Below, one piece after another: positions 4,643 to 59,679 of a stretch of DNA of 64,000 nt (position 1 is the first letter of the stretch; the number at the start of each line of letters is the position of its first letter). Below the pieces are notes generated by a model. That model saw only the letters and a list, made by a program, of their open reading frames with translations. It was not told where the DNA came from and did not search any database. The stretch lies in contig JBIOZE010000131.1 in assembly GCA_044870745.1 (NCBI GenBank), forward strand, positions 430-64,429. Direction: 5' to 3'. The position numbers and the translations under genes are program-made. This DNA comes from Nitrososphaeraceae archaeon. Its GTDB lineage: Archaea > Thermoproteota > Nitrososphaeria > Nitrososphaerales > Nitrososphaeraceae.

Positions 4643-5593
4643 CTAATTGGTAGAATTCATCGCATTTATCCAACCTACGATTGAGTTTGTGATTGGTAAC
4701 CTATCAACTTCGGAATAACGGTTATCATCCTGGTTAAAGAAAATGGCATGGTTAAACCAATGATCGCAATCCAACAATTGGATAGTCTTTTTATCGCTTT
4801 TTAGCATTTTGTAAAAACTTTCAGATATTTGAGGATTTACATTGGTATCATTCTTTCCATGCAATATGAGAATTGGGGTTCTTAGTGAAGATAGTTTGCT
4901 TACTTTTGTGTTCCTAAATCCTATTACGTCTACAATATACCGGTATGAATAGCAATTTATAATATCCGGATCATTTATCATAATCTCAACCTCCTTGGTT
5001 TGCAGAATTGAATTGCTAACTACTTTCTTTGCTGAAACTAAGTTCGACGGAGTAAAGATCCGTCTTAACAATAAATTATAAAAAGTAGTTGAGGCAGGGA
5101 CTGCTTCTCCCTTATTTTTGATTTCTTTAATCCAAACATAAGGAGCCAGAAGTATTAGTCCAGAAATCTTTCTAGTGTATGCTGTTAAATACCACATTGC
5201 ATATGTACAGCCCAAACTATGGGCCAAAATATATACATTCGATTGCTTGCTTTGCCTCTTATCCACTCCATGCGGGCTTTCGGACAAAATTTGAGATAAG
5301 ACCTCATCAATAGCTCTTAGAGTATTTTTGAAATCAGGGTCTCCGCGCTTACCGTCCGATTTTCCATGACCTAATAAATCAATTGCATATGTTTCTATCC
5401 CAGATTTTGTCAACGCTCGACCGAGGTACTGGAATATTCTCGCATCGCAGCAAAATCCATGAAGACAGAGAACCTTGCATTCTATAGAGTTTTTATTATC
5501 AGCAGAAGGATAGAATGTTGCATTAATCTTACCCTGACTAGTAAGGAAAGAAATACTGCTATTTTCGTCTTGCACATTTTCAGTCTTTTCCAT
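4643..5593 (-). CDS. Alpha/beta hydrolase (lysophospholipase/monoacylglycerol lipase-like)
   Basis: LHGF oxyanion motif, DLLGHGKS, AHSLG nucleophile elbow, HGKND, C-terminal His. Confidence 0.85.
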   Translation of the reverse strand: MEKTENVQDENSSISFLTSQGKINATFYPSADNKNSIECKVLCLHGFCCDARIFQYLGRALTKSGIETYAIDLLGHGKSDGKRGDPDFKNTLRAIDEVLSQILSESPHGVDKRQSKQSNVYILAHSLGCTYAMWYLTAYTRKISGLILLAPYVWIKEIKNKGEAVPASTTFYNLLLRRIFTPSNLVSAKKVVSNSILQTKEVEIMINDPDIINCYSYRYIVDVIGFRNTKVSKLSSLRTPILILHGKNDTNVNPQISESFYKMLKSDKKTIQLLDCDHWFNHAIFFNQDDNRYSEVDRLPITNSIVGWINAMNSTN

Positions 5594-6326: not shown

Positions 6327-6557
6327 ATGGACGAAGAACGTAAATCTGGTGATGGGTCTAGACTCTCTATATCAAGAGTGTTCTTATCTGGAACATTACT
6401 TGCAGTAGTAATTGCTATCCCTGCTGTAGTTGTAACATTCATCACGCATTACGTACTCCACACCGAATTTCTGATTACTTTAGCGTCCGGTATTCTGACT
6501 CTTTTCGGAGCTATGGGATTTAGTTATAAGATTGCAAAGAAATTATCAATAAACTGA
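6327..6557 (+). CDS. Small two-TM membrane protein
   Basis: ATG 6327 is 22 nt after TATA-like TTTTATAT (6298-6305) and preferred to the track start 6294. Two hydrophobic helices. Confidence 0.7.
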   Translation: MDEERKSGDGSRLSISRVFLSGTLLAVVIAIPAVVVTFITHYVLHTEFLITLASGILTLFGAMGFSYKIAKKLSIN

Positions 6558-6660
6558 GTTTACTGATTCCTGAGGTCGCCCGGAACACCTTCAGAAATGC
6601 CCAATTAGTTCCAATTTATGCCAAACATGTTGCAAGCATTTCAATATGATGTAACATCTA

Positions 6661-7134
6661 TTAGCATTCTTGGCAATTCTTCCAGCCGATTTGTTCTTGA
6701 TAGTAATTCGCTAACTTCATGTGTCGTAATCGTTCGCCAACAGTCTTAGCCTTTTCCATTCGACGCAAATGTGATCGTAACTGACTTAAATCACACATGC
6801 AAACACCTGTGACCGGTTTGTATTTGGATATTGATATAACGTGTTTCCTGTGATCAACTAATAGCATTCCGACCTTGGTTATACCGGTTATAGCGAAAAT
6901 CGCACCTACGATCCAGATCAAGATCCCCTCTGACACCAAGACAGAAAAAACGTTGCCATGGGAGCTGTAGGAGATAATTGGAATAGGAATCAAAATTGAT
7001 AATATTACTCCTACCGGTGTAAGGAGAACCAAAATGGACAACAATCTATCGTACGGTTCAACTTCTTTTTCAAAACGATCAAGCAAGGTCTCCAATCGTG
7101 AATCGATTTTGTCCTGCGTTTGCATTGGGCTCAT
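6661..7134 (-). CDS. Hypothetical two-TM membrane protein with cytoplasmic CxC tail
   Basis: 157-aa ORF, two hydrophobic segments, GVCMCDL motif, no competing long ORF. Confidence 0.7.
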   Translation of the reverse strand: MSPMQTQDKIDSRLETLLDRFEKEVEPYDRLLSILVLLTPVGVILSILIPIPIISYSSHGNVFSVLVSEGILIWIVGAIFAITGITKVGMLLVDHRKHVISISKYKPVTGVCMCDLSQLRSHLRRMEKAKTVGERLRHMKLANYYQEQIGWKNCQEC

Positions 7135-7442
7135 CCTGATTGAGCTATATTAAGTCACAATTTATTAACATTGTCGAAATATTTGCACATATCTCTGAAA
7201 TTTATACTTCCAGGTAATTAATATGATTTGATGATTATCATAAACCCGAATAATCTTATCAACCGGTGTACTTTCTCATTAAAATATGATTAATGACTGG
7301 CTGTATAAGCCAAGATGGCAAACAATCTTCGTAACGACCTAAATAGCGATATATTTTTTATATCTTTTTGGTATAATTGCTATTATATTTGATACACTAA
7401 TGTATAAATTTCTCATCAATCGGCTATTGATATTGATAAGAT

Positions 7443-7691
7443 ATGATTGGTCGTCCGATTTTAAAAAGTCAAGCCTTTAATGTCACTTCTGATGTATTTG
7501 CAAAATCAATTTGGGTCAGCTCGTGTCTTGCAATAGTTTTTACCTTACCCCCTTTAGCACTGTTGATAGGAATATATTGGAATACTGGCAATTTGCTTGC
7601 CGGTGCAATTGTCGGTTTTGCAGTTCACTTTGCAATATTGGCTATTTCGCCAAAACTATCTGTTGGATTGTCGTCATTTATGGATCCCTAG
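7443..7691 (+). CDS. Small two-TM membrane protein
   Basis: Helical hairpin LAIVFTLPPLALLIGIY...GAIVGFAVHFAILAIS, resembling the 6327-6557 protein. Confidence 0.7.
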   Translation: MIGRPILKSQAFNVTSDVFAKSIWVSSCLAIVFTLPPLALLIGIYWNTGNLLAGAIVGFAVHFAILAISPKLSVGLSSFMDP

Positions 7692-49042: not shown

Positions 49043-50065
49043 TTAGAGGACAGTTCTTACGTCTTCACAGTTATCGTTTGTCACGTCGCCTTTACTTGGA
49101 TCAAAGTCCACTACGGTATCGAATCCTGATCCGCAGTCAAAGAAGTTAGCGCCTGGACCACCTTCAAGTGTATCGTCCCCGTCTTGTGCATATAGTTCAT
49201 CGTTTCCTTTACCCCCATTAAGATAGTCATCGTTTGGTCCAGCAAATACTGCGTCATCCCCATCATCGCCGTGTATGTTATCGTTACCGAATCCTCCTTG
49301 AATTGAATCGGGGCCGGCTCCTCCATGCATGATATCATCGTCGTCTCTTCCTTGGATTACATCTCCGGCACCCTTGCCAGACATGTCGTCGGCTGAACTA
49401 GTTCCTAAGAGAATGTCGCTTTTCTTAGTTCCATCAATTTCATTAAACTGAAATCCATCTACGATGTTACCTATTGGAAGACCACAGACATTGAATTCCC
49501 GTCTCTCTTTCAATGGAAGGCTTTTTTTGTAATCAAGTGTGTCTTTGATCCTATCATCACTATCAATATCAGTATCTGTCTTTATTAGTTCGTTCAGAGC
49601 CTCAGGATCACCAGTCTCTATGATGGTTTCGTTATCAGGAGGCGGACCTATGGTTATGCTTTCTACTGGGAAGAAGATGTCAGGTACTTCAAAATGATTG
49701 TCATTTTTCTTGAATGCAACATTCGGGTTATCAAGTCCATTTAAGGTGTTGTCAATTATTCCTAATCCTTCACCTGGCCCCTCGAGTTCTACGTCATTAT
49801 CTATTGTAGCGTCCCTGTCGATTTCATCCACTCTTTCCTGTTCAGTATTTGTATCCTCAGTTTCTAAAGATCTAGAACCTGTTAGTGTAATTTGCTTTCC
49901 CTTGTGATCATCCAAACAATTTTCATCCAAATTATATTTTGATTGTTCAGCATTGCCGGTCTTCGCATATACATTGGAAATAAGTACTGATCCCAGTAAC
50001 ATGGAGGCTATCAGTGTAGATGCCACAGCTATCATAAAGCTTGATCTCAGATGTAAGGATTTCAT
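49043..50065 (-). CDS. Secreted RTX/hemolysin-type Ca-binding repeat protein
   Basis: Sec signal (NVYA-K), about 10 nonapeptide repeats (GGAGPD, GGFGND, GGKGND, GGPGAN). Confidence 0.88.
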   Translation of the reverse strand: MKSLHLRSSFMIAVASTLIASMLLGSVLISNVYAKTGNAEQSKYNLDENCLDDHKGKQITLTGSRSLETEDTNTEQERVDEIDRDATIDNDVELEGPGEGLGIIDNTLNGLDNPNVAFKKNDNHFEVPDIFFPVESITIGPPPDNETIIETGDPEALNELIKTDTDIDSDDRIKDTLDYKKSLPLKERREFNVCGLPIGNIVDGFQFNEIDGTKKSDILLGTSSADDMSGKGAGDVIQGRDDDDIMHGGAGPDSIQGGFGNDNIHGDDGDDAVFAGPNDDYLNGGKGNDELYAQDGDDTLEGGPGANFFDCGSGFDTVVDFDPSKGDVTNDNCEDVRTVL

Positions 50066-55368: not shown

Positions 55369-55530
55369 TGGGGTTAACTGTCAAATATTTTATTTCTTTC
55401 CTAGCCTATCCTAGTCTCCCTTCTCAACAAGCGTAATGACATGATAACCTATCTTCAGAATATAAAACAAACAAAGATGCGTAGTGTAAACTAGATATAC
55501 CTAGTACATATCTACTATTATTGGGGGGAA

Positions 55531-55941
55531 TTGTTAATGCCTGTTGATTATGAATTTCTTTACTCCTTTGGAGAACAACTTCTTAATTTCCAGAAATCCC
55601 TAAGATGGGTTGGTATAGCAAATAGATATGGAGTATTGCTCTCGGTGGAGCATCGGGATAATTTGAAGCCATTTATGACTGAAGAGGAAAATGAAGAGTA
55701 TGCTGCCAACGCTGTAAAAAGATATACGACCCGAATCAAATTTCAGACCAAAATCGGAAAGTTAAATTATGCTTTTGGCAGATATGAAAAGATAAGTAGA
55801 GTTACGATTCCAATAAACCATTACTACTATTTACTTTTAACTTTTGATCCAGAAGAAAAAAACTATGATGAACTTATTATGAATAAAATAGTGCCACTGA
55901 TCAGGAAGTATGACGACAAGTTTCAATCCGATGAGGAATAG
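55531..55941 (+). CDS. Thaumarchaeal DUF6659-like (roadblock/profilin-like) protein
   Basis: LRWVGIANRYG, IGKLNYAFGRYEKI..VTIP, LLLTFD pattern. Confidence 0.7.
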   Translation: MLMPVDYEFLYSFGEQLLNFQKSLRWVGIANRYGVLLSVEHRDNLKPFMTEEENEEYAANAVKRYTTRIKFQTKIGKLNYAFGRYEKISRVTIPINHYYYLLLTFDPEEKNYDELIMNKIVPLIRKYDDKFQSDEE

Positions 55942-55958
55942 ATGTGTAATTTTCGGGA

Positions 55959-57311
55959 TTATCCGCTTACAAATTTTTTGTAAATAGATAGGGCATCTTC
56001 TTCACTTTTCGCACCAACTATCGTTGCCGCTCCACTCGTCATAAAGCTCACAGATAACTGTTCTCGTTCGATGGTGTTACTGATTGCGGTTAAACCTAAC
56101 TTCCCCCGGCTCATTACCTTATATCCCAGCTGTTCAGCATTTTTTTCTATTCCCAACAAACTGAGTGGAGAAGTGACGTCTGCAGGAGTAACTGTGTAAG
56201 TTCTCTTACCTCTATCTCTACCACACAATTCCTCGATTATAAGTTCTTGTATCTGATGGGTAGGGATATGATCTGTCAACTTTCTATTCGGGCCACAAGA
56301 CGGACATTGATCATACCTGAACATCTGAACTTTATCAAAGGTAAGTTCATTCAAATCAATGTACATCAGCTTGTTCACCAGCGTTGGCTTTTCCCCAGTG
56401 ATTATCTTTACCACTTCAGAGACTTGAATGCCCGCTACCAGATACAATATTGATGGATGTACCCCTTCTGTGCTACAAGTAGGCATGTCATCTTCTGCCA
56501 ATGCAGGAAACATGCATCTCAAACATGCTGACTCATTTGGCATTATCGTGCAAACAGATCCCAGCATCCCTAGAGCCCCTGCATAGATGAGAGGAATATT
56601 GAGTTTGATACATGCATCATTTAGAGCATACCTAGCATCTATACTATCTAACGCGTCTACCACGATATCGTAGTTTTCAATTATTTTCTCAGCTGTAAAT
56701 TTGGTAACCGAAATGGGTAGCGCTTCTATCTCTACACTAGGATTAATCTGTTCTAGGCGATCTCTTGCTGCCTCAACCTTTACACGTCCAACATCGTTTT
56801 CAGTAAAAATATGCTGACGATGAAGATTGGAAATTTCAATCACGTCCCTGTCAACTATTTTAATTTTTCCAATGCCCATGGCGACGAGCTGCGTGACAAC
56901 AGGATTACCAATTCCACCGACACCAACTACACAAATTTTGGCTTTACGAATCTTTTCCATCCCCATAAAGCCAATTTCTTCAAGCATTATTTGTCTAGAA
57001 TAACGCTGTAAATCTTCAGTCTTGAGATCTGAGCCCCCTGCTACTGCAGGTAAAATGTAAACCGAATCGCCTTCATTCAAGGCTGTTGCCATACCGTCAT
57101 CGCTAAATCGCATATTCTTACCATTAATGTAAATATTGATCAGAGACCGAGGTTTTCCATTCAGATCTAGTACTCTTCGCCTAAAATCCTCACCCATCTG
57201 TTCTGAGAGCTTTGTGAATGCATCCTGAAGGTTTGTGGCGTCTAAGTGAATCTTTTTCTCTCCTTCTCCCTTTGTGAGGACAGAAGGAACTACAAATTCA
57301 ATTTTTGCCAA
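55959..57311 (-). CDS. Ubiquitin-like (MoaD/ThiS/SAMP) and E1-like (ThiF/MoeB) fusion protein
   Basis: N-terminal beta-grasp ending ILPAVAGG (G92-G93), then RYSRQ, GVGGIG, DRDVIEISNLHRQ, CLRC, PTCSTEG, CPSC. Confidence 0.93.
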   Translation of the reverse strand: MAKIEFVVPSVLTKGEGEKKIHLDATNLQDAFTKLSEQMGEDFRRRVLDLNGKPRSLINIYINGKNMRFSDDGMATALNEGDSVYILPAVAGGSDLKTEDLQRYSRQIMLEEIGFMGMEKIRKAKICVVGVGGIGNPVVTQLVAMGIGKIKIVDRDVIEISNLHRQHIFTENDVGRVKVEAARDRLEQINPSVEIEALPISVTKFTAEKIIENYDIVVDALDSIDARYALNDACIKLNIPLIYAGALGMLGSVCTIMPNESACLRCMFPALAEDDMPTCSTEGVHPSILYLVAGIQVSEVVKIITGEKPTLVNKLMYIDLNELTFDKVQMFRYDQCPSCGPNRKLTDHIPTHQIQELIIEELCGRDRGKRTYTVTPADVTSPLSLLGIEKNAEQLGYKVMSRGKLGLTAISNTIEREQLSVSFMTSGAATIVGAKSEEDALSIYKKFVSG

Positions 57312-57345
57312 ATTTTGTAATCACTATGGATCTAGATATGAAGGA

Positions 57346-58572
57346 TTATCTAATCATTGCCGACACAGTCTGAATATCTGGCTTCACTACGTTTAATTTT
57401 GGAAGTGCACCTATTATCGCTTCCGTACTCTTTAATCCGTTACCTGTAATATAGCATACTACCTTTTCATCTCTTTGAATAAGTCCTTTTTCCACTAACT
57501 TCTTGAGCACTGCGACTGACACGCCTCCTGCTGGCTCTGTAAAGATCCCCTCAGTCTTGGCAAGCATCAAAATACCATCAATTATTTCCCCGTCCGTCGC
57601 CTCTTCAGCCAAACCTTTGTACTGCTTGAGTCTTCTCAAAACATACATACCATCTCCTGGGTCACCTATTGCCAAGCTTTTTGCTATAGTCTCAGGTCTT
57701 TCGACAGGCATAATATTCGAATCATTTTTCTTAAAAGCGTTAACTATTGGAGCACATCCGTGGGGCTGTGCAGCCGTAATGCGCAAATTGGATATATCTT
57801 TTAGCAGACCAATTTGTTGTAGTTCCTCAAATCCCTTACAAATAGCGTTCAACATAGCTCCGCTTCCTACTGGGATTATTAAATGATCAGGGACTTGCCA
57901 GTTCAATTGTTCTGCCACCTCATAAGCTAGAGTCTTTGAACCTTCTACATAGTATGGTCTCATATTGATATTTACTACCCCAATGCCTTTGGAATCTCCA
58001 ATTATTGAAGCTACCCTGTTTGCGTCATCATAAGTCCCTTGCACTGCGACGAATTCAGCACCGTAGGATAGAGCTTGTGCTATCTTGGCATTCTCTATAT
58101 CAGAAGGAGCAAAAATATAACAAGGTAGTTGACCCTTAGCAGCATGAGCTGCAGTTGCAGAAGCCAAGTTACCAGTGGACGCACACCCAACGGCCTTCAG
58201 TCTTGTTTCTTTAGCCCTAGAAACAGCAACGCCAGCTGGTCTATCCTTAAAAGAAAATGTTGGATTGACCGAATCGTTCTTAATGAATAGACTCTTCAAT
58301 CCGCCGATCTTGTCCCCAAGTTCATCTGCCTTTTGTAAAGGAGTGAAACCTGCATGAAGATTGATAATATTACTCCTGTTAGAGATGGGCAAGAGCTCGA
58401 AATAGCGCCAATACGTCTTCTCTTGTCTAGATGATAGAGTTGTTTTATTGAAATCAATTGGAAAATCATATTCGACATCTAGCGGTCCAAAACATTCTTC
58501 GCATATATACTTGAATTGCGGCTCGTAGCAAGCAGCACATTCCCTACACTTTAGCGATTTTATTACTCCCAT
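57346..58572 (-). CDS. thrC: Threonine synthase-like PLP enzyme
   Basis: SFKDRPA PLP-Lys, CASTGNLA, NMRPYYVEGSKT, FTEPAGG, TGNGLK, N-terminal CxxC pair. Confidence 0.88.
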   Translation of the reverse strand: MGVIKSLKCRECAACYEPQFKYICEECFGPLDVEYDFPIDFNKTTLSSRQEKTYWRYFELLPISNRSNIINLHAGFTPLQKADELGDKIGGLKSLFIKNDSVNPTFSFKDRPAGVAVSRAKETRLKAVGCASTGNLASATAAHAAKGQLPCYIFAPSDIENAKIAQALSYGAEFVAVQGTYDDANRVASIIGDSKGIGVVNINMRPYYVEGSKTLAYEVAEQLNWQVPDHLIIPVGSGAMLNAICKGFEELQQIGLLKDISNLRITAAQPHGCAPIVNAFKKNDSNIMPVERPETIAKSLAIGDPGDGMYVLRRLKQYKGLAEEATDGEIIDGILMLAKTEGIFTEPAGGVSVAVLKKLVEKGLIQRDEKVVCYITGNGLKSTEAIIGALPKLNVVKPDIQTVSAMIR

Positions 58573-58622
58573 AATTTACAAGCAGCAGTCACTCACCCTA
58601 CTAGATAAGACTCACTAATAGG

Positions 58623-58643
58623 AAGTTAAGTAATACTTAACTT
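58623..58643. promoter_or_regulatory. Perfect 21-bp palindrome overlapping the thrC promoter region
   Basis: AAGTTAAGTA-A-TACTTAACTT, 50 nt upstream of ATG 58572. Confidence 0.65.
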
Positions 58644-58751
58644 TTAGTGGTTAGAAAATTTATGATACTAAATAATAAATGTATGGTAAAAATATTACAT
58701 TAGACTACGAGATTAAAATTATTTAATAATTCGATTTCGAATCATGAAATA

Positions 58752-59090
58752 TTATATCACCAACTTGTTATGAAAGCATGATCGCTCTCCCGTATGACAA
58801 GCTGGCCTTGTGGAGTCAACAAGATAAACCAATGCGTCTGAATCACAATCTACGAGAATCTCCTTGACCGGCTGCACGTTTCCTGATTCCTCTCCTTTCA
58901 TCCACAGTCTGTCGCCTGATGTCCTCCAAAACCATGCGTTACCTGTTTCCATAGTATGCTGAACTGCATCTTTATTTGCATAAGCAAGCATCAAAACATC
59001 TTTTGTCTTTATGTCCTGGACTATTACGGGAATAACTCCTTTGCGCTTCACAAAATCTAGTTCAGTTGATGACTTGGTTCGATTTTTCAT
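58752..59090 (-). CDS. hisI: Phosphoribosyl-AMP cyclohydrolase
   Basis: VLMLAYAN, LWMKGEESGN, VDCDSDAL, ACHTGERSCF. Confidence 0.96.
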   Translation of the reverse strand: MKNRTKSSTELDFVKRKGVIPVIVQDIKTKDVLMLAYANKDAVQHTMETGNAWFWRTSGDRLWMKGEESGNVQPVKEILVDCDSDALVYLVDSTRPACHTGERSCFHNKLVI

Positions 59091-59211
59091 CCACGTTGCA
59101 TTTAATGTCTAATTGACATAATTATAATGTTTATACAATATACGAGAACGTTGCATAATAGGCATAAATAAGGATAGTTTGATATTAGATTAAATCGAGT
59201 GGAACATTGGA

Positions 59212-59679
59212 ATGGCAATTGAATATAATCATGAGAGATTCTATGGAATCGTAGTAGTAGTTTTATTGATCGCTGGTTCATTAATCATTCTAGGAATCCA
59301 ACTATCTGCTTTTGCTCAGCAAGGCCAAGGGGTCGTTATCAAACTTAATTCTGCATATTTTAGCTCTCCATCTGGAAACGGGAATCATCAAGTCAAAGTT
59401 GTTACAGATTACACAATATCAAATACGTCATTGGTAGGACAAAAGATAAATGCCGTTATGAAAGTGTACTCTCAAAACGGAACATTGTTAAAAACTACTT
59501 CGTATCCTGATGGATTTATTCTCAACAATACAGGATCCAGACAACTCCTAACAAACATCCAAAATTCTACTATAAATAATATTACAGCAGTAGCTACATT
59601 TACGAATTTCGCAAAGACAGTGGCTTTATCGAATGCCCTTGAGGTCCCCCTCAATTTGGGTCAATCTAGAACTGGATAA
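59212..59679 (+). CDS. Hypothetical secreted beta-rich protein
   Basis: Signal peptide ending SAFA-Q, N/T-rich beta-strand pattern. Confidence 0.75.
   Translation: MAIEYNHERFYGIVVVVLLIAGSLIILGIQLSAFAQQGQGVVIKLNSAYFSSPSGNGNHQVKVVTDYTISNTSLVGQKINAVMKVYSQNGTLLKTTSYPDGFILNNTGSRQLLTNIQNSTINNITAVATFTNFAKTVALSNALEVPLNLGQSRTG

Follow-up and report, generated by a model that had tools for sequence, protein, structure and literature searches.

The window analysed here is a stretch of 64,000 nucleotides from a contig of a Nitrososphaeraceae archaeon (JBIOZE010000131.1, assembly GCA_044870745.1), and two of its genes raise the question with which this work is concerned: why does a gene for a pyridoxal 5'-phosphate (PLP) enzyme of the threonine synthase (ThrC) family, P0002, lie directly ahead of a gene, P0001, in which a ubiquitin-like sulfur-carrier domain is fused to an E1 enzyme? 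The answer that we consider likely is that the pair is a two-gene operon for de novo synthesis of homocysteine by the MetM/MetO route. This answer is carried by the anatomy of the genes, the clade membership of the enzyme, the conserved linkage of the two genes, the pattern of ThrC paralogues, the inventory of the methionine pathway and the history that leads from split to fused carriers. The source assembly measures 3.03 Mb and is 94% complete; gaps in its pathways are reported below as genes not found rather than absent. The relatives used for comparison are 40 genomes of the same order, and the same-genus tallies (24 genomes) include one unpublished genome, G020, on which no conclusion rests.

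Thiocarboxylated ubiquitin-like carriers give sulfur to PLP enzymes in the CysO/CysM/Mec system of Mycobacterium tuberculosis and in the HcyS/HcyF/HcyD/MetY system of Wolinella succinogenes, and in pathways of this type a JAMM protease exposes the GG end of the carrier and/or frees the amino acid from it. The enzymes of these systems are of CysM or MetY type and act on O-phosphoserine or O-acetylhomoserine, whereas the archaeal enzyme is of ThrC type and its substrate would be O-phosphohomoserine. A ThrC-type system, the MetM/MetO route, has been described in Streptomyces albulus, together with Mec and MoeZ (Hasebe et al. 2024, Appl Environ Microbiol 90:e0124724, as cited in PMC13759103 and PMC12172450). 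According to these two articles, metM is a ThrC homologue located behind an S-adenosylmethionine (SAM) riboswitch, and its product draws on a thiocarboxylated carrier to convert O-phospho-L-homoserine to homocysteine (PMC13759103, PMC12172450).

Transferred to the archaeon, the route would begin with homoserine kinase, which would supply O-phosphohomoserine. P0002 would then eliminate the phosphate and add the C-terminal thiocarboxylate of the carrier at the gamma carbon, where threonine synthase adds water; release of the adduct would yield homocysteine, and a split cobalamin-dependent MetH would convert it to methionine. The 93-residue carrier is made as the N-terminal part of one polypeptide with the MoeB/ThiF-type E1 by which it would be adenylated, and the proprotein would be cut after AVAGG, most likely by the two stand-alone JAMM/JAB metalloproteases of the genome, so that carrier and E1 would be made in a 1:1 ratio. 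As the sole E1 of the genome, it must act on the free MoaD encoded in the molybdenum-cofactor operon too. The chemistry of P0002, the cleavage of the carrier and the protease responsible for it, and the source of the sulfur are the parts of this scheme that we infer.

The coordinates of the open reading frames (ORFs) bear out the original prediction that the two genes lie on one strand at a distance of 34 base pairs (bp), and they are probably co-transcribed across this spacer. The order of enzyme, carrier and, where it follows, E1 is kept in all complete loci from this genus and extends to eight or more further families of the order, so the adjacency did not arise by chance. A scan of positions 55500-59500 against Rfam (E up to 1) returned no element, and thus no SAM riboswitch, at the archaeal locus. 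The gene upstream on the same strand is hisI (phosphoribosyl-AMP cyclohydrolase, 58752-59090, minus strand), which ends 180 bp before the MetM-type gene; the AT-rich spacer between the two probably holds the promoter of the operon.

P0002 is a fold-type II PLP enzyme with the PLP lysine motif SFKDR at residues 107-111, and it shares its fold and this motif with canonical ThrCs of solved structure (Thermus 1UIM, Aquifex 2ZSJ and Mycobacterium 2D1F; E 1e-53 to 6e-65, 185-223 bits). It also passes the equivalog model for threonine synthase, TIGR00260 (297 bits against a cut-off of 167). The TIGR00260 score speaks for a simple reading of the locus, in which P0002 is an ordinary threonine synthase, its neighbour is a housekeeping E1 for the molybdenum cofactor and for tRNA thiolation, and the two share no function. 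The model scores P0002 well above the other ThrC homologue of the genome (184 bits), the public name of the protein is "threonine synthase" in all records seen (120 top matches), and P0001 is the sole E1 of the assembly and must have housekeeping roles as well. The database proteins closest to both products are near-identical, are named as Nitrososphaeraceae and carry no functional names beyond default annotation, which for the fusion is "molybdopterin-synthase adenylyltransferase". However, the actinobacterial ThrC paralogues that stand behind SAM riboswitches also score above the TIGR00260 cut-off (244-280 bits), so this model cannot tell MetM-type enzymes from canonical ThrCs, and release 20 of NCBIfam (r20) contains no model naming MetM or MetO.

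Direct comparison separates the two kinds of protein. Along its entire length, P0002 shows 45% identity to a SAM-riboswitch-controlled ThrC paralogue of Streptomyces filamentosus, and in phmmer searches it scores 332-358 bits against such paralogues, 156-193 against canonical actinobacterial ThrCs and 134 against the paralogue encoded in its own genome. In a tree of 60 sequences inferred with IQ-TREE, P0002, all carrier-linked archaeal enzymes and the actinobacterial ThrC paralogues form one fully supported clade with a stem of 0.46, while the canonical actinobacterial ThrCs and the archaeal paralogues without an adjacent carrier, including that of the present genome, group elsewhere. Constraining the archaeal proteins to group together lowers the log-likelihood by 273.9 units (p 1.5e-5 in the approximately unbiased test, for a group that was named only after the tree had been inspected).

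The clade is also recognizable from its residues. Solved canonical ThrCs (~350 amino acids, aa) align with P0002 only from residue 55 on and therefore are without its N-terminal four-cysteine segment, a ribbon whose four cysteines are invariant or nearly so among 20 clade members. The NMRPYY motif flagged in the original prediction proves to be a real signature: in an alignment of 26 clade members with 20 canonical ThrCs, the canonical N-P-x-R becomes R-P-Y-Y, with R205 in place of Asn and Y208 in place of an Arg that does not vary among the canonical sequences (96-100% conserved in the 26 MetM-type sequences, against canonical N and R in 18-20 of the 20), and the loop carries a one-residue insertion relative to canonical ThrC. 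The canonical STGNT likewise becomes STGNL, with L136 in place of Thr, and Leu136 and Tyr208 are found throughout the clade (92-100% of the 26 sequences). In the alignment to Thermus ThrC, L136 stands opposite Thr88 and Y208 opposite Arg160, two residues that we take to be ligands of the substrate and product phosphate, which guides the addition of water in ThrC. Judged from the alignment, loss of both would fit a site that lets phosphate leave and admits the C-terminus of a protein. The swaps of Thr to Leu136, Arg to Tyr208 and Asn to Arg205 are candidate sites for switching between threonine and homocysteine chemistry.

The ThrC family also contains longer proteins in which the enzyme is fused to another domain. 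The partners are PadR, LeuA_dimer and inositol phosphatase, and no fusion of enzyme and carrier was seen among the longer representatives. A C-terminal PadR transcription-factor domain occurs in P0145, P0169, P0178 and P0204 (~495 aa), a C-terminal LeuA allosteric dimerisation domain in P0153, P0168 and P0183 (~615 aa), and an N-terminal inositol monophosphatase domain in P0251 (718 aa). A FastTree phylogeny limited to proteins of 370-520 aa, a range that the LeuA_dimer and inositol-phosphatase fusions exceed, puts all four PadR fusions outside the MetM-type clade.

The original prediction named a second thrC among the genes to look for. One was found: contig C111 encodes a homologue of 446 aa that matches a plant threonine synthase end to end. 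Its placement in the tree and this match suggest that it would be the true threonine synthase. Nearly every one of the 40 relatives has two ThrC homologues as well, of which one adjoins a carrier and the other is either of the 446-aa type (in ammonia oxidisers) or of a 410-aa type that scores 340-354 bits. An ordinary threonine synthase at our locus is difficult to reconcile with a second, canonical-type ThrC here and in nearly all relatives, with the clustering of P0002 among riboswitch-controlled paralogues rather than canonical ThrCs, with the persistence of the enzyme-carrier linkage in two relatives whose E1 is encoded elsewhere (G028 and G031) and with the failure to find another homocysteine route in the genome. 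We regard this reading as very improbable.

The comparison with bacteria supports the assignment to the MetM/MetO route. The characterised MetM of S. albulus (A0A059WBP2) was represented by orthologues from other Streptomyces, picked by riboswitch and gene context, and when named genomes were scanned with aligned clade members, 80 actinobacterial loci emerged. In 49 of these, a carrier of ~91 aa ending in IIPAVAGG or AVAGGC is encoded directly downstream of the ThrC-like gene, and a profile hidden Markov model built from the archaeal carriers matches the actinobacterial ones at 1e-18 to 1e-24. All 13 actinobacterial loci tested, six of them without an adjacent carrier, have a SAM riboswitch (RF00162, 63-84 bits) immediately ahead of the ThrC-like gene and on its strand, and each of the five genomes examined among them also has a separate canonical ThrC of ~355 aa. 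Neither E1 nor JAB genes were found beside the actinobacterial enzyme loci. Loci L066-L091 (Micromonospora, Actinoplanes, Asanoa, Blastococcus, Jatrophihabitans and others) have no carrier gene within 5 kb of the MetM-type gene, and the six tested among them all have the riboswitch; the sulfur donor of these loci is therefore either different or encoded at another site. Most actinobacterial carriers end in AVAGG, and those of L109, L120, L121, L131, L134, L137, L141, L142 and L144 have an extra Cys after the GG; carriers of this AVAGGC form probably explain the step that PMC13759103 gives as "[MetO]-L-cysteine hydrolase (Mec)".

The archaeal and Streptomyces systems have in common a ThrC-family enzyme with an N-terminal Cys4 ribbon and RPYY, followed by a beta-grasp carrier of ~91-93 aa that ends in PAVAGG, as well as a separate canonical ThrC in the genome and a need for an E1 and a JAMM hydrolase. 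They differ in that the archaeal carrier is fused to the E1, which is thereby adjacent and is the sole E1 of the cell; this E1 has no rhodanese domain, unlike MoeZ of Streptomyces, and has a TBP-like C-terminus instead. The archaeal locus moreover has no SAM riboswitch, its JAMM genes are unlinked, and its host is an ammonia-oxidising archaeon.

The genes around the proposed step fit the route. As the original prediction advised, methionine and cysteine synthesis genes were sought in the genome, and homoserine kinase (ThrB, 208 bits) is encoded elsewhere in it. The cobalamin-dependent MetH is split in two adjoining genes on contig C66 (G000; L158:3961-6507 and 6547-7482, minus strand), which encode an 848-aa pterin-binding, B12-binding and activation protein and a 311-aa protein with the homocysteine S-methyltransferase domain. 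Threonine ammonia-lyase (IlvA) and an enzyme of the CysK/M family are separate genes. The assembly contains no genuine enzyme of the Cys_Met_Meta_PP family (MetB/C/Y/Z-type; the best match is partial and scores 27 bits), and HcyBio/COG1900, MetX and MetE were likewise not found in it. Among the relatives, strong matches to PF01053 occur only in G025, G028, G030, G033 and G040; all three genomes without a carrier-linked enzyme (G025, G030 and G033) have one, compared with 2 of 38 with such an enzyme. Because the relatives are not independent, we treat this complementarity as supportive and not as statistical evidence.

The same inventory bears on the possibility that the product is a different sulfur compound, namely cysteine from O-phosphoserine, as in the CysM/CysO system, or a thio-amino acid that goes into a cofactor or a natural product. 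Thiocarboxylated carriers do serve several PLP enzymes (CysM/CysO and MetY/HcyS), which makes the suggestion reasonable in general. The enzyme is nevertheless of ThrC type and not of CysK/CysM type, a CysK/M-family gene is present separately, the SAM riboswitches on bacterial members of the clade point to methionine, and homoserine kinase is present in a genome where the homocysteine step is otherwise unfilled. We therefore give a different product very little credence. Sulfhydrylation of O-phosphohomoserine to homocysteine with the help of the carrier, as put forward in the original prediction, is supported by the clade of the enzyme, the second thrC, the JAB proteins of the genome and the failure to find another route, and it would account for the gene pair on the strength of such genomic comparisons.

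The second gene of the pair was predicted to encode a beta-grasp domain with an internal GG, joined to a complete E1, and Pfam, motifs, alignment and structural model agree on this. Pfam places ThiS over residues 17-93 of P0001 (3.2e-8) and ThiF over residues 104-337 (5e-77). AVAGG occupies residues 89-93, and its GG (92-93) lies inside an ORF of 450 codons' length that runs on without a stop, so the carrier as encoded does not have the free C-terminal Gly-Gly carboxylate needed for adenylation. The E1 part has the nucleotide loop, Arg finger, DxxD, two CxxC zinc pairs and the Cys after the first pair (RYSRQ at 103, GVGGIG at 130, NLHRQ at 162, DALD at 219, CLRC at 263, PTC at 277-279 and CPSC at 336), and its core (residues 95-342) can be aligned over its whole length with ThiF and MoeB of E. 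coli (1zfn, 1zud, 1jw9), including the zinc cysteines and the position of ThiF Cys184. An AlphaFold model is confident for all three domains, the predicted local distance difference test (pLDDT) score of the C-terminal domain (~105 residues) being 60-91, and Foldseek aligns the model to ThiF/MoeB chains (1zud, 1jw9) with TM scores of 0.90-0.92. Neither Pfam nor NCBIfam gives a rhodanese match on P0001. Between the carrier domain and the carrier that Streptomyces encodes after its MetM-type gene, identity is 36% (E 2e-15), and the two have the PAVAGG tail in common. The features of the locus are collected in Table 1.

Table 1. Features of the enzyme and carrier-E1 gene pair (positions in the window)
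Feature	Position	Strand	Basis
MetM-type (ThrC-family) PLP enzyme P0002, 408 aa	57346..58572	-	PALP 3e-71; TIGR00260 297 bits
N-terminal Zn-ribbon-like CxxC...CxxC of the MetM-type enzyme, residues 9-27	58492..58548	-	CREC at 9, CEEC at 24
Clade signature NMRPYYVEGSKT, residues 203-214 of P0002	57931..57966	-	Alignment of clade members with canonical ThrCs
Intergenic spacer, 34 bp	57312..57345	-	Both genes on one strand
Carrier-E1 fusion gene P0001, 450 aa, TTG start, ubiquitin-like (Ubl)-E1-TBP architecture	55959..57311	-	Pfam ThiS and ThiF
MetO-type ubiquitin-like sulfur-carrier domain, residues 1-93, ending ILPAVAGG	57033..57311	-	ThiS match; likeness to Streptomyces carrier
Gly92-Gly93 (internal) and junction SDLKTEDLQ, predicted processing site	57006..57038	-	Conserved junction, low pLDDT
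MoeB/ThiF-type E1 adenylyltransferase core, residues 95-342	56286..57029	-	ThiF 5e-77
C-terminal alpha/beta domain, residues 343-450, "TBP-like" of many prokaryotic E1s	55962..56285	-	Covered by NF009123 (residues 102-446); fold assignment predicted

P0001 is the only E1 in the assembly (the sole PF00899 match above cut-off and the sole phmmer match to E1). The MoaD of the genome is a free, GG-ended protein encoded in a moaA-moaD-moaE-moaC operon and has no similarity to the carrier domain; with a single E1 available, P0001 must also activate this MoaD in trans.

The relatives document how the fusion arose. The fused form is present in all 24 same-genus genomes and in G027 and G036, which represent two other families, and at the junction of all fused loci AVAGG is followed by S(D/E)(L/F). 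Seven relatives of other families (G028, G029, G031, G034, G035, G038 and G040) have instead a free carrier of 91-94 aa that ends in GG-stop. In five of the seven the E1 gene follows the carrier, and in four of these it either overlaps the carrier gene or begins no more than 7 nucleotides past the carrier's stop; in the other two, G028 and G031, the E1 is encoded elsewhere while enzyme and carrier stay linked. In G038 the frames of carrier and E1 are in phase and one stop apart (GG-stop-K-M-S-F-T-D-E-D-L-E-RYSRQ), and the linker of the fusion is no more than the N-terminal tail native to the E1. The complete genome G032 (1.58 Mb; L023, G032:C1, ~5371-5408) has a carrier gene that continues for 8 codons past the GG (NSKGYGYG-stop) and extends, in a different frame, into the beginning of the E1 ORF; this has the look of a frameshift or of a fusion that was split again.

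A Ubl-E1-TBP fusion of Thaumarchaeota, of the same architecture and lineage as P0001, was listed by Makarova and Koonin in 2010 without a function and without mention of ThrC, and the name TBP-like for the C-terminal domain of the E1 comes from the same article (PMC2948915). Beyond that listing, the present analysis ties the fusion to a MetM-type enzyme and traces its origin to adjacent, translationally coupled genes for carrier and E1.

Relatives that are not ammonia oxidisers have a further cassette in which genes for a JAB protease and an E1 adjoin (L035 in G030:C54; G026:C90:5944-7398; G037:C1:107859-109280), and in none of the three is a ThrC homologue linked to it. In G030, JAB and E1 flank a carrier whose GG is followed by a tail of 15 aa, and in G026 the E1 match covers query residues 4-345 within a frame of 478 aa, which suggests a second Ubl-E1 fusion.

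A glycine held in a peptide bond cannot be adenylated, so the carrier, if it is the sulfur donor, must be cut from the fusion after AVAGG. Several observations agree with such a cut. PAVAGG is invariant in the fused forms, and within the genus the carrier domain is conserved at 80-96% and the E1 at 75-92%. The junction is predicted to be disordered, with pLDDT values below 50 at residues 90-96 and 101-111 between domains at 80-95. Masked carrier ends also occur elsewhere in the family, as GGC in some Streptomyces and as the 8-residue tail in G032. The original prediction stated that the window has no JAB gene and advised a search of the whole genome. Contigs C41 and C43 each encode a JAMM/JAB protein that stands alone and has an intact HxH...S..D motif. 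All 28 genomes that have a fused or tailed carrier contain one JAB or more.

Several findings weigh against the route as we propose it, or against parts of it. No JAB gene lies on the contig of the window, the only two in the genome being unlinked to the operon, and none was seen beside the enzyme-carrier locus of any relative examined. G038, whose carrier ends in GG-stop, has no detectable JAB at 96% completeness, so the pathway itself may not need one; this and the lack of linkage mean that the choice of protease stays a matter of inference. The analysis turned up no rhodanese domain and no other partner for sulfur loading. The 446-aa paralogue, the putative threonine synthase, sits on a long branch (1.76) in the IQ-TREE phylogeny. 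Among the actinobacteria, 31 of the 80 clade members have no adjacent carrier. Finally, a cyanobacterial member of the clade is reported to have threonine deaminase and threonine synthase side activities and no clear MetM role in vivo (PMC12172450).

The same findings on proteases lend some weight to the view that the carrier domain is never released and works solely in cis, as a module for docking or regulation, with the enzyme making homocysteine from free sulfide or with the separate MoaD. No protease is linked to the operon, the fusion persists throughout the genus and in two or more other families, and P0001 has no internal start codon ahead of the essential RYSRQ helix. On the other hand, the PAVAGG tail is invariant and recurs unchanged in the free carriers of relatives and of Streptomyces, conservation of the carrier domain matches or exceeds that of the E1, the MoaD of the genome is unlike MetO-type carriers, the junction is predicted to be flexible, and every genome with a fused carrier has a JAB. 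On balance we consider a permanently attached carrier unlikely.

Release could also take place without a separate protease. The residue right after Gly93, Ser94, is invariant in every fused form, and it might drive an N-to-O acyl shift at the Gly93-Ser94 bond, of the kind known from autoprocessing proteins, by which the carrier-E1 polypeptide would process itself. If this were true, the resulting ester would be attacked by persulfide or sulfide and the carrier freed as a thiocarboxylate, the first round of sulfur loading would require neither ATP nor a JAMM protease, and the reaction would be a natural counterpart of the laboratory intein trick for making protein thiocarboxylates. We mention self-processing as a speculation that is quite improbable.

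A released carrier need not be primarily a sulfur donor. It could be mainly a modifier of the SAMP/Urm1 kind that is conjugated through isopeptide bonds and so controls the ThrC-like enzyme or further targets, with sulfur transfer in a secondary role. The SAMP1 model gives 42 bits for the carrier domain and 58.6 for the Streptomyces carrier (cut-off 60), and the sole E1 together with the JAB proteins resembles the haloarchaeal UbaA/HvJAMM1 set, the first of the two JABs matching the desampylase model weakly (JAB1, 27.7 bits). All SAMP and desampylase scores are, however, below cut-off, and the conserved partner of the carrier is one PLP enzyme whose bacterial orthologues stand behind SAM riboswitches, in keeping with the published sulfur-transfer pathway (PMC13759103). 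A mainly regulatory modifier thus seems to us most improbable; conjugation of the SAMP type could coexist with sulfur transfer, and the self-activating SAMP precursor offered as an alternative in the original prediction may also hold but is not needed.

Ammonia-oxidising archaea are major nitrifiers of soil and ocean, and the operon, read as a MetM/MetO system, fills the homocysteine step of their methionine pathway. The pathway described in 2024 would in this way reach an archaeal order, in which split, tailed and fused carriers form a clear series, and the names "threonine synthase" and "molybdopterin-synthase adenylyltransferase" are most likely misnomers for the pair. The MetM/MetO pathway itself is already known (2024), and so is the architecture of the fusion (listed in 2010; PMC2948915). 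The literature that we searched, which did not cover Hasebe et al. 2024 and any archaeal homologues that it possibly notes, does not assign the route to ammonia-oxidising archaea, and it contains neither a reannotation of their "threonine synthase" nor a link between the fusion and methionine; within this scope, the presence of the route in ammonia oxidisers, the reannotation and the link between fusion and methionine synthesis appear to be unstated so far. The operon raises the questions of how a ubiquitin-like protein leaves its own E1 and how one E1 serves the synthesis of both methionine and the molybdenum cofactor.

Genes near the pair, for Lsm and archaeosine TGT, are archaeal in type. 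Positions 49043-50065 of the window code, on the minus strand, for a protein of 340 aa that matches the RTX calcium-binding nonapeptide repeat four times (HemolysinCabind, 1.8e-19), and such a protein looks unusual for an archaeon.

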